Source: a virus | Taxonomy: Duplodnaviria > Heunggongvirae > Uroviricota > Caudoviricetes | Reading direction: 5' to 3' (one strand) | IMG/VR virus record: IMGVR_UViG_3300012275_000045 | Length of the DNA stretch: 5,835 nt | The notes under the pieces: generated by a model | Told to the model about the DNA's origin: nothing | Database searches by the model: none | What the model saw: the letters and a program-made list of their open reading frames with translations, nothing else | Made by a program: the position numbers and the translations under genes | Shown here: one piece after another, positions 2,787-5,309 of the stretch | Position numbering within the stretch: the first letter of the stretch is position 1 | Layout: the number at the start of each line of letters is the position of its first letter

Positions 2787-2942
2787 TTACTCCTCAGGTT
2801 CGTAAGCTGTGAAGACAGCGACCTCCGTCTGGCCGGTTCGGATTCGTACCTCGCAGAGGTCTTTCCTCGTTACCAGTGCCGTCACAATGACGGTTAAACA
2901 GATGACGATCAGGGCGATTAACATCGCCTTTTGCTGCTTCAT
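2787..2942 (-). CDS. hokD: Hok/Gef-family type I toxin (HokD/RelF-like), 51 aa
   Basis: Translation MKQQKAMLIALIVICLTVIVTALVTRKDLCEVRIRTGQTEVAVFTAYEPEE: single TM helix plus the conserved RKxLCEV..R.G..EVAAF/VF motif of Hok/Gef, and it matches my recollection of E. coli HokD/RelF. AAGGAG lies 9 nt upstream of ATG 2942..2940. There is no relB/relE upstream, unlike the K-12 relBEF operon. Confidence 0.9.
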   Translation of the reverse strand: MKQQKAMLIALIVICLTVIVTALVTRKDLCEVRIRTGQTEVAVFTAYEPEE

Positions 2943-2999
2943 AGCCTGCTTCTCCTTGCCTTTCGGCACGTAAGAGGCTAACCTAGATTTGCCGTTCAT
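2787..2999 (-). CDS. mok: Mok-like in-frame N-terminally extended reading frame (modulator of hok translation), 70 codons
   Basis: In-frame upstream ATG at 2999..2997 with GAGG 7 nt upstream. The extension MNGKSRLASYVPKGKEKQA resembles the basic K/E-rich extension of chromosomal Mok proteins as I recall them (e.g. MokC ...RKVKEKRAMKQHK). Mok/hok overlap is the standard architecture of hok/sok loci. Confidence 0.5.
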   Translation of the reverse strand: MNGKSRLASYVPKGKEKQAMKQQKAMLIALIVICLTVIVTALVTRKDLCEVRIRTGQTEVAVFTAYEPEE

Positions 3000-3153
3000 A
3001 GATTGAGCCTCAGATTAATGTTAAGCGTCTTGCAGGACGCGTAATGTTAACTGGGGCTTTTCTCTATCTGCCTTTGGTGTTCATGCCTGAGACAGATAGC
3101 CTCAAGCACCCGCAGCCATTCTACTTAACTCCCGTTACCTCGCCAATATGAAA

Positions 3154-3243
3154 TCAGTCAGAAAGGCGATCCATAAGAACAACAGCAAGGCAATAAATTG
3201 CCATTACAGCAGCAATAGCCAGCGCACATTTGAGAACCAGCAC
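3154..3243 (-). CDS. Candidate small hydrophobic membrane peptide (29 codons), possible type I toxin-like or leader peptide
   Basis: Perfect AGGAGG (3254..3249), 5-nt spacer, GTG start at 3243..3241, TGA stop at 3156..3154. Hand translation: (M)LVLKCALAIAAVMAIYCLAVVLMDRLSD, about 23 hydrophobic residues then an acidic/polar tail. Not in the ORF track because it is below the length cutoff. No homolog recognised. Confidence 0.3.
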   Translation of the reverse strand: MLVLKCALAIAAVMAIYCLAVVLMDRLSD

Positions 3244-3736
3244 CACAACCTCCTGTATTGGACGTACATCAGTCCTGATAAATATGAGGCTGTCTCGTCA
3301 GTGATTCAATACAACTATTGGGTATAGTTTCTGTGATTTTGTTCTGTAGAAATGGAACACAATAACCAGTCACCACCAGCACTTCTTTAAATACGCCAAG
3401 TCCGACGCAAGCTAACCTTCTAGCCCACTTTGAGCGAGAAGCAGACATTTACTTAACTGGATAGCAAGAGACTTCATATATCATGGTTGATCCCGGAGTT
3501 TTCAATAATGGAAAGACATTGCCCGTATGATCGGGCCGTAACCACATTAGAAGCAGGTGCCCTTTGTGAATTTTGATTGTGTCAACCTATCTGTTTTGAA
3601 TTTTTTATAAAAAATATTCGCAAATTTGTGAATTATGAGAGACAAACGAGCATGGACAACCAATGTTACTTTCATACACAATGAAGCAACATGATAAAAG
3701 TACACTGACTTTAGCAAGTAAATTTAGGAGATTGCG

Positions 3737-5071
3737 ATGTTTAGCTTAATCATGGCCGGAGAACCGGACGTTTTTGACCGCTGGCCGTGTATGGACCCAG
3801 GGCTTACAGAAGGCGAGGAAAGATTCTCGATGTCCCGCATGCTGGAAGGCACCCCAAGCGATATTTACAGTAAATTAACACCAATAAGACCCGATACCTT
3901 AAGAGAACTCGCCAAGCTACCAGTATTGTTCATGACCGAAACTTATACAAAAGATGATGAATATGATACAAACAAGTACATCAGGATCAGACTTGGGGAA
4001 ATAAGAAATTTACGTAAAGATGGTGGCGATATTTTATTTTCTTTCAAGATTAATCATAATTTTGGAGAAATAACGAATCCCCAAACGACATTATATAAAG
4101 AAACCCTAGGGCTAGGATCTTTCGGGTTAAGCCGTACACATTGGGCAGTAAAAAATAAGGATTTAAATATTGTTCTGGAATCACTTGGTTTAAACAAACA
4201 AAATAGTCACCTCAAAGGTACAATCAAATTAAAAAAACAAACATACCCAGTAGTCGAGAATATTATAGATTATCTTAATTTCATAAAGAAAAACTTTCGT
4301 GATGGTCTCATTACCTTTTATCGTGGACACTCTAAAAGCTCATATGAGCTTGTCCCCTCTCTTTACAGAAAAAATCAAAACGGGACGTACAGGCATCTTG
4401 CTTCAGAATCTGATTTAGTACGTGAAATACTCAGCGCAAGACCAAATGAATTTAAGGAGGATAAATTTACGATTGATAAACTTGTCCGCATGCAGCATTA
4501 TGGCTTGCCTACAAGACTCTTAGACATTACATCTAACCCACTGATAGCATTATATTTTGCTTGCTGTTCGAACCCCAATGAAAACGGACAGGTGATTTCG
4601 TTTTCAACAAATAGAAAGAAAATTAAATATTTCGACTCAGATACAGTGAGCTGTATAGCAAACTTATCTCTTTTATCTTACGAAGAGTTGGAAAAATTGT
4701 CCTCCTCTGATTCCAGAAAAGGTAATATGGAGTTATCTGAACTCACTGATAAACTTGCAGACCTTATACAGAATGAAAAATCATATTTTAGAAACAGAAT
4801 AATTCCTGATGACTTAAGGAAAGTTGTTTTCCTTAAGGCTAAAATAAATAATGAACGCATACAATCTCAGGCAGGAGCTTTTCTTCTGTTCGGACTTGAT
4901 CCCATTTTACCGGAAACAGATGCTGAGTTTCCTCTTAACAGAGTGGAGATAGCGAACAAAAATAAAATTCTGGAAGAGCTGGCGCAGCTTAATATATCCG
5001 AAAGCACTGTATATCCCAGCATGGAGAAAACGGCAGCAGAAATTAAAAAAAAGTTTTTATCGGTATCATAA
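3737..5071 (+). CDS. FRG-domain protein (444 aa) with an uncharacterised ~190-aa N-terminal region; candidate anti-phage / abortive-infection effector
   Basis: Long ORF in very AT-rich DNA, where random ORFs this long are improbable. TAGGAG (3725-3730) lies 6 nt upstream of ATG 3737; an alternative start is ATG 3830, preceded by GAGGAA. Residues 194-197 FYRG followed by ...YELVPSLYR..., and residues 253-275 QHYGLPTRLLDITSNPLIALYFA, match the FRG domain signature (Pfam FRG, PF08867) as I remember it. C-terminal part is charged and coiled-coil-like (EELEKLSSSD...LADLIQNEK). Only gene on the plus strand in the window, with non-coding DNA on both sides. Confidence 0.85.
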   Translation: MFSLIMAGEPDVFDRWPCMDPGLTEGEERFSMSRMLEGTPSDIYSKLTPIRPDTLRELAKLPVLFMTETYTKDDEYDTNKYIRIRLGEIRNLRKDGGDILFSFKINHNFGEITNPQTTLYKETLGLGSFGLSRTHWAVKNKDLNIVLESLGLNKQNSHLKGTIKLKKQTYPVVENIIDYLNFIKKNFRDGLITFYRGHSKSSYELVPSLYRKNQNGTYRHLASESDLVREILSARPNEFKEDKFTIDKLVRMQHYGLPTRLLDITSNPLIALYFACCSNPNENGQVISFSTNRKKIKYFDSDTVSCIANLSLLSYEELEKLSSSDSRKGNMELSELTDKLADLIQNEKSYFRNRIIPDDLRKVVFLKAKINNERIQSQAGAFLLFGLDPILPETDAEFPLNRVEIANKNKILEELAQLNISESTVYPSMEKTAAEIKKKFLSVS

Positions 5072-5098
5072 AGGGATAAACTAAAGGCAACGAAAACT

Positions 5099-5114
5099 AA
5101 GACTGCGCAGTCTT
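5099..5114 (-). terminator. Palindromic hairpin, weak candidate terminator for minus-strand transcription between the convergent 5310..5732 and FRG genes
   Basis: aagactgcgcagtctt is a perfect 16-nt palindrome (6-bp AT-rich stem, GCGC loop). On the minus strand it is followed by AGUUUUCGUUGCCUUUAGUUU (U-rich); on the plus strand no U-tract follows. The stem is weak, so confidence is low. Confidence 0.3.
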
Positions 5115-5309
5115 CAGATGGAAGTGCTCATTGGGAACGGTTTCAGGGGCAAAAACTGGAAGTTCCAGTGGGCCTTGAGCTGCTCCCTATAAATTAACAT
5201 ATCTCAATGTTATCAATGTCTGCTTTTGGCACAAAGCGGACAACCACGCTAGCTCTACCCTGTGCCACAAAATGTCAATTTACATCTGAACTAATGCACT
5301 TTAATCTCG

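Follow-up and report, generated by a model that had tools for sequence, protein, structure and literature searches.

TisB, ZorO, DinQ, ShoB and Ibs, toxins of type I toxin–antitoxin systems, are small hydrophobic peptides with a polar tail, and a peptide of similar size, hydrophobicity and tail that is encoded beside a hok/sok locus invites comparison with them. Such a peptide is specified by a 29-codon open reading frame (ORF), hereafter the mini-ORF, in a 5,835-nucleotide (nt) stretch of DNA from a virus of the class Caudoviricetes (IMG/VR record IMGVR_UViG_3300012275_000045). This whole stretch is referred to as the window, and positions are given in its numbering unless another locus is named. 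A sequence-only reading of the window had likened the product to type I toxins and small membrane regulators, and had mentioned a leader peptide or a remnant as further possibilities. The mini-ORF is, in all likelihood, a real protein-coding gene. That its product is a stand-alone 29-residue single-pass inner-membrane microprotein of the Escherichia lambdoid prophage backbone is the explanation we favour, and we consider it probable as a whole, although with distinctly less confidence than the coding status itself.

Start codon and Shine-Dalgarno sequence

The mini-ORF occupies positions 3154–3243 on the minus strand, with a GTG start (3243–3241), 29 sense codons and a TGA stop (3156–3154), and its translation is (M)LVLKCALAIAAVMAIYCLAVVLMDRLSD. 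A Shine-Dalgarno (SD) sequence, AGGAGG (3249–3254, minus strand), is separated from the GTG by a 5-nt spacer (TTGTG). Both this arrangement and the placement of the mini-ORF between hokD (2787–2942, minus strand) and a gene with an FRG domain (3737–5071, plus strand) are as originally described. Another in-frame GTG lies directly upstream (3244–3246, minus strand) and served as the start in a program-made ORF list (30 amino acids, aa), but it is not the conserved start: among homologues the codon at 3246–3244 is GTG, GTC, GTT, ATC, ATT, TAT, GCC or ATG, whereas the GTG at 3243–3241 is retained in 167 of 168 loci and replaced by ATG in the remaining one, so that all 168 have a start codon. Because the preceding GTG is variable and the second is conserved, the 29-codon start is taken to be correct. 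The SD is similarly well kept (GGAGG in 152 of the 168 loci, 143 of them as CAGGAGG, and AGGAGA in 14, together 166), with ATGAGG in one locus and a deletion in one (L007). In the window, an in-frame stop is found 22 codons 5' of the GTG.

The SD and start pattern alone is weak evidence and is not significant. AGGAGG-N5-DTG occurs once in the window against 0.10 expected, and at least once in 18 of 200 shuffles, which does not bear out the earlier statement that a consensus SD here is unlikely by chance; it is conservation that lifts the mini-ORF above chance. The surrounding DNA is also not notably AT-rich, as had been supposed, with a GC content of 0.45–0.47 over 3000–3300; the AT-rich parts are 3500–3700 and the FRG gene (GC 0.31–0.39).

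Reading-frame conservation and selection

Reading-frame conservation had been proposed as a check on the mini-ORF, and it was examined in loci selected on their flanks only (CATATTTATCAG, 110–138 nt, then CATATTGGCGAGG). The 29-codon frame was intact in 70 of 70 such loci, and the lone length variant was explained by a 2-nt insertion in the 5' untranslated region (UTR). Eight diverse copies showed zero indels within the mini-ORF alignment while the flanks on both sides were replaced, and no indel or stop was found in the mini-ORF across copies down to 78% nucleotide identity with unrelated flanks.

Polymorphism was compared between the mini-ORF and the 191-nt leader upstream of it in a set of 55 haplotypes and in a set of 28 from which protein-selected loci were left out. 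The minor-allele fraction was 0.055 (55 haplotypes) and 0.049 (28 haplotypes) in the leader, and within the mini-ORF was 0.012 and 0.022 at codon position 1, 0.006 and 0.010 at position 2, and 0.061 and 0.050 at position 3, respectively. Positions 1 and 2 are therefore 2–10 times less polymorphic than position 3. The 55-haplotype alignment had 19 gapped columns in the leader and none at any codon position of the mini-ORF. Overall, the leader varied at 40–53% of its sites (53% in the 55-haplotype set) and contained 18–19 gapped columns, and for this reason is regarded as non-coding.

Substitutions were also of the coding type. The pooled Nei-Gojobori ratio of non-synonymous to synonymous substitution rates (dN/dS) was 0.27–0.34 in the frame of the mini-ORF and 0.63–0.95 in the other two sense frames. 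Among distinct single-base variants in DNA-selected loci, 20 of 42 were synonymous, compared with 29% expected for the observed transition/transversion mix (binomial p = 0.009), and the replacements were mostly conservative, exchanging Ala, Val, Ile and Thr for one another. The mini-ORF thus has the properties of a translated ORF of ≤50 codons under purifying selection, the ribosome-profiling part of this evidence being weak. The idea of a genuine small hydrophobic coding gene with a functional-looking ribosome-binding site is upheld by frame conservation, the synonymous excess and the published initiation and footprint counts from strain BL21 (see below).

Two overlapping or neighbouring ORFs were considered and rejected. 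A plus-strand 59-aa ORF antisense to the mini-ORF (3148–3327), annotated in phage HannyBb, has a dN/dS of ∼0.7, which indicates that it is not coding and is a miscall. A minus-strand 59-aa ORF in the leader (3269–3448) lies within indel-rich DNA.

Prior annotation and published profiling data

The mini-ORF had been called unannotated, which is correct for PGAP in the closest genomes and incorrect elsewhere. It is present as WP_000960667.1, a 'hypothetical protein', in one RefSeq genome, and GenBank entries, REL606 included, name it 'membrane protein' or 'conserved hypothetical protein'. It is also a member of a published cluster, Escherichia_98807. In Table S4 of 'The Cryptic Bacterial Microproteome', the BL21(DE3) orthologue in this cluster is located at NC_012971.2 1591437–1591524 (minus strand) with the sequence VLVLKCTLAIVAVMAIYCLVIVLMDHLSD (PMC11188072). 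The cluster is classed as 'Entero67K', i.e. predicted coding, with a dN/dS of 0.46, and a reanalysis of BL21 retapamulin (Ribo-RET) data gave translation initiation site (TIS) counts of 13 and ribosome-protected footprint (RPF) counts of 38, with a coverage of 0.90 of the ORF (PMC11188072). The counts are low but on the same GTG. In BL21 (locus L004, 2508–2917) the slot upstream of the mini-ORF, occupied by the FRG gene in the window, is empty, and the coding sequence (CDS) of a DUF977 gene extends 40 nt into the mini-ORF in a different frame; the SD is present. Neither the peptide nor WP_000960667 occurs in the paper texts searched, and the Sakai Ribo-seq supplements do not contain the peptide. 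The mini-ORF escaped K-12-centred small-protein studies because standard annotation usually skips it and K-12 is without it.

Predicted peptide and its relatives

The description of a small hydrophobic peptide with a single membrane segment agrees with the predicted properties. Hydropathy is highest in the 19-residue segment CALAIAAVMAIYCLAVVLM (mean Kyte-Doolittle value 2.70), the grand average of hydropathy (GRAVY) of the whole peptide is 1.81, and AlphaFold2, using a 15-sequence alignment, predicted one helix over residues 2–29 of the 30-residue form with a mean predicted local distance difference test (pLDDT) score of 92. By these predicted properties the product would be a small hydrophobic membrane-targeting peptide, as type I toxins are.

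Searches of Pfam, NCBIfam, PHROGs and PADLOC with the peptide returned only chance matches that fell far short of the cut-offs, to hydrophobic parts of SecE and ATP synthase subunit c, and PADLOC models gave no match at E ≤ 10 to any of three peptide variants. No PDB chain matched the peptide by sequence. A phmmer search of 1.84 billion representatives recovered only relatives of at least 86% identity and no distant or larger homologue, while a word-indexed protein search yielded 33 clusters, all from Escherichia; the query in the homologous-protein search was a 40-aa in-frame extension of the peptide.

Candidate promoter, leader and proposed mode of action

A candidate sigma-70 promoter of the mini-ORF lies at 3281–3309 on the minus strand (-35 TTGAAT at 3309–3304, a 17-nt spacer and -10 CATATT at 3286–3281), with a predicted transcription start at ∼3276–3274 and consequently a 5' UTR of ∼31–33 nt. 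In 147 of 168 loci TTGNNN-17-CATATT precedes the start codon by 37 nt, and these loci include leader types with largely different 17-nt spacers. Because the element is kept at a fixed distance despite diverged spacers, this suggests that TTGAAT-17-CATATT is a weak sigma-70 promoter. It is missing in four loci, one of which is BL21, where the DUF977 gene runs into the ORF. The non-coding leader itself (3256–3446, minus strand) is common to most copies, and its upstream edge at ∼3446 forms a sharp junction with variable cargo; homology to most loci starts at 3446 ± 10.

We propose that the mini-ORF is transcribed in the early-rightward (nin-region) direction, which is the minus strand in the lambdoid prophage, probably from its own weak sigma-70 promoter together with upstream read-through. 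Translation would be driven by the strong SD and the GTG, as conservation and the weak BL21 initiation and footprint counts indicate. From its hydrophobicity and the positive-inside rule, the peptide would insert as one helix with Lys5 on the cytoplasmic side and its acidic tail, (M)DRLSD, on the periplasmic side, and by analogy it would most likely act in trans through helix–helix contacts, either with a different membrane protein or between copies of the peptide. It may best be seen as a prophage accessory ('moron') function. The transcript probably continues into the hok locus.

Distribution of the mini-ORF

The 154-nt stretch 3147–3300 was found in 1,966 of 5,426 complete E. coli genomes (about one third) at 80–99% identity, and also in E. 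albertii, E. ruysiae and Shigella. A protein-pattern scan of IMG/VR viral contigs produced 281 matching stretches. Most copies of the mini-ORF are >90% identical. A tblastn search of a plasmid collection returned 135 records whose peptide is 79% identical; most are pINV virulence plasmids of Shigella and enteroinvasive E. coli (EIEC), where the copy is located just upstream of icsP.

On pWR100 of S. flexneri M90T (locus L170, 2930–3200) the mini-ORF copy lies at 3001–3090, ∼290 nt upstream of icsP, with an ATG start, AGGAGG and TTGAGT-17-CATATT. Of its codon differences from the window, 9 are synonymous and 6 non-synonymous, with nucleotide identity at 78%. The hok promoter and ∼90 nt of a degenerate hok leader are retained downstream of it, with no hok coding sequence. 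The pINV copy is thus a prophage fragment within the much-studied icsP regulatory region. In strain E10 and on an S. flexneri chromosome, homology ends right after the mini-ORF stop, another gene follows and there is no hok.

The hok/sok neighbourhood

The downstream neighbour of the mini-ORF in nearly all copies is hokD, which encodes a toxin of 51 aa. The hok promoter (3118–3146, minus strand; TTGGCG at 3146–3141, 17 nt, TAGAAT at 3123–3118) is promoter-like by scan, and its position agrees with the hok mRNA 5' end at ∼3111 derived from the Rfam model. The hok mRNA leader and sok region (2937–3111, minus strand) matched Rfam RF01794 ('sok') at 110 bits against a gathering score of 59 (E = 3.6e-25). 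Downstream from the mini-ORF stop it is 7 nt to the hok -35 and 42 nt to the hok mRNA 5' end, and since the mini-ORF precedes both, it is outside the hok/sok cassette. Consistent with this, the hok cassettes that other phages carry stop at window positions 3128–3146, inside their own promoter, and are without the mini-ORF, which is accordingly not a component of the hok/sok/mok locus. No terminator was predicted between the mini-ORF and hok, and read-through from one into the other is therefore likely on sequence grounds.

Two further annotations touch the hok gene. A 70-aa ORF (2787–2999, minus strand) that begins with an upstream ATG (2999) and shares the hok frame is called 'MokW' in some phage records, and phage HannyBb also annotates a plus-strand ORF at 3044–3151, antisense to the hok leader, as a hypothetical protein. 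In the near-identical strain XDL the gene order is DUF977, FRG (opposite strand), mini-ORF and hokD, followed by a 130-aa hypothetical protein, a second hypothetical protein, DUF968, RusA and Q. Within the window, two runs of 10 Ns (346–355 and 1315–1324) interrupt the genes on the Q/RusA side and the DUF968 gene, and look masked or unresolved.

An upstream cargo and defence hotspot

Upstream of the mini-ORF, a hypervariable cargo/defence slot (3447–5300) lies between the replication/DUF977 genes and the block formed by the leader, mini-ORF and hok. In the window it holds the FRG-domain gene, a candidate defence gene (PADLOC PDC-S15, E = 2.7e-99). Among 97 loci the nearest upstream ORF fell into 41 length-and-sequence classes, in either orientation. 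Candidate or validated PADLOC defence genes at other loci included PDC-S06, PD-T7-3 and PDC-S33, and other cargo comprised an NTPase weakly matching HerA (E = 2e-6), an annotated QueH and, named from sequence motifs, a Major Facilitator Superfamily (MFS) transporter, a LysR regulator and a ParA-like ATPase. Because homology starts sharply at ∼3446 and the content upstream varies, the mini-ORF and hok are the conserved downstream flank of a prophage cargo/defence hotspot, and the fixed position of the mini-ORF between this slot and hok/sok makes it a convenient marker of the hotspot.

Three direct repeats of a TTTGTGAATTTTGA-like sequence are found at 3563–3638, ∼30 nt apart, overlapped by the palindrome ATTCGCAAATTTGTGAAT (3616–3633), in AT-rich DNA (GC 0.35) upstream of the FRG start. 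These repeats might serve as operators of the cargo gene.

Evaluation of alternative explanations

Several observations weigh against a functional membrane microprotein and should be set beside the evidence above. A Fisher test of variable sites at position 3 versus positions 1 and 2 in the 28 unbiased haplotypes gave p = 0.08 and was underpowered. The low ribosome-profiling counts come from BL21, in which the ORF is fused behind the DUF977 gene and has no promoter of its own. Of 12 consensus positions the candidate promoter matches 8, too few to reach the scan threshold, so that it was not called, and 17 loci have a different -35; since some loci have another -35 or are without the element, transcription of upstream genes must presumably also contribute to expression. 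The family is restricted to Escherichia and Shigella, and because of this confinement some of the conservation reflects recent spread. The mini-ORF is present neither in the K-12 Qin prophage, where the slot is occupied by relBE, nor in most hok loci. Strain ECJXMCRH7 (locus L097, 2001–2118) carries an IS1 insertion in the mini-ORF; in strain STEC367 (L098, 2001–2043) a 5'-truncated mini-ORF is fused to the cargo junction; and the protein database holds rare frameshifted or stop-loss variants. In strain Z1324SEC0014 (L007, about 1990–2100), which has the most divergent peptide, a ∼110-nt deletion removes the SD and promoter. The copies in these three strains are natural knock-outs. Given the IS1-bearing, truncated, SD-less and rare frameshift or stop-loss copies, the mini-ORF is dispensable, yet it is usually kept intact. 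Lastly, the mode of action proposed for the peptide is drawn from the general behaviour of small membrane proteins. Some of these points would suit a non-functional ORF whose apparent conservation comes from a young DNA block spread recently by recombination with hok: the host range is narrow, most copies are highly similar, the translation signal is weak, and the ORF is missing or disrupted in some genomes. We nonetheless consider this improbable, as the leader of the same block gains indels and substitutions while positions 1 and 2 of the ORF do not, the synonymous excess is significant, and copies at 78–84% identity, pINV included, retain frame, start, stop and hydrophobic character. Still more remote is a C-terminal remnant of a longer gene or an attenuator leader peptide. 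Gene callers do sometimes extend the mini-ORF to 34–165 aa where the upstream stop has mutated, but these extensions are unconserved and lie in the indel-rich leader, whereas the SD, the GTG of the 29-codon start and the stop are conserved, the upstream in-frame stop closes the frame in the window, and no larger homologue emerged from the 1.84 billion representatives. For a leader peptide, no terminator or antiterminator follows the ORF, the predicted fold is unremarkable, hok is served by a promoter of its own that lies after the ORF and ahead of the hok mRNA start, and copies of the ORF survive where hok is missing. Both of these earlier suggestions are accordingly rejected.

A type I toxin, in which the peptide depolarises or permeabilises the inner membrane and a plus-strand cis antisense RNA restrains its translation, would accord with the strong SD and with the adjoining hok/sok, a genuine type I system, and we judge it unlikely. 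The resemblance to type I toxins is generic, consisting of small size, hydrophobicity and a polar tail. Homology to a described toxin family was not found: Pfam and NCBIfam toxin models gave no match at E ≤ 10, and BLASTP produced no alignment between the peptide and Hok, on which ground a diverged hok duplicate was also rejected. Nor did sequence signals indicate an antisense RNA antitoxin, although an unconventional RNA would lie outside their reach: the plus-strand promoter proposed for such an RNA, or any promoter-like or terminator-like plus-strand site, was looked for across and beside the mini-ORF and none was seen; Rfam reported no RNA over the mini-ORF at E ≤ 1, its sole match being the hok/sok leader downstream; and third codon positions vary as much as the non-coding leader, giving no sign of an overlapping functional RNA. 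Two terminator-like hairpins within the ORF (3219–3200 and 3202–3189) were set aside as by-products of the codons, because most haplotypes disrupt the GGCAATTTATTGCC palindrome (TGC to TGT). Shuffled sequences are predicted to fold as well as the mRNA does (z = -0.5), indels are numerous in the leader, and the combination of a short 5' UTR with a strong SD that nothing visibly restrains suggests that the peptide is tolerated. The proposed toxin likeness is thus unsupported. About equally doubtful is a unit that is mainly cis-acting, occluding or feeding the hok promoter (e.g. through a 5'-extended hok mRNA) with the peptide secondary. The hok leader does follow the ORF in 165 of 167 intact-ORF loci, and the stop codon abuts the hok -35 with no intervening terminator; however, selection acts on the amino-acid sequence, beyond the mere presence of an ORF, hok has its own promoter and sok control, the cassettes of other phages dispense with the ORF, and the ORF is intact where hok is missing or decayed (E10, S. 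flexneri, pINV). In particular, a purely cis role is argued against because the mini-ORF outlived hok on pINV. A comparably small likelihood is given to the peptide working in partnership with either the hok module of the prophage or the adjacent defence hotspot, as a Hok modulator or antagonist, a superinfection excluder or a toxin without conventional antisense RNA; if true, this would explain both its retention beside hok in ∼99% of copies and its lone survival on Shigella pINV. Overall, a stand-alone membrane microprotein acting in trans remains the explanation that we favour.

Comparison with known systems

At present the finding corrects an annotation and does not amount to a new mechanism, and it adds one well-supported and widespread member to the under-annotated membrane microproteins of prophages. 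The mini-ORF is like MgtS, AcrZ, CydX, KdpF, YohP and ribosome-profiled prophage microproteins in combining 29 residues, one hydrophobic helix and a short polar tail with its own SD, and like the profiled microproteins it has been detected only by initiation-site profiling and comparative genomics. Unlike the named small membrane proteins, with which it has no sequence similarity, it is carried by mobile DNA, of prophages or plasmids, and not by a core operon. It shares with TisB, ZorO, DinQ, ShoB, Ibs, Ldr and Hok a short, hydrophobic sequence with a polar C-terminus, and its place beside hok/sok; it differs from the type I toxins of E. coli in having no family match, no detected antisense RNA gene, no structured leader and unconstrained synonymous sites. 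With respect to hok/sok/mok of the plasmid R1 type (RF01794), the mini-ORF is adjacent and co-oriented in ∼99% of intact copies, yet it lies upstream of the hok promoter and outside the hok mRNA, is missing from the cassettes of other phages and from K-12 hokD, and bears no similarity to Hok.

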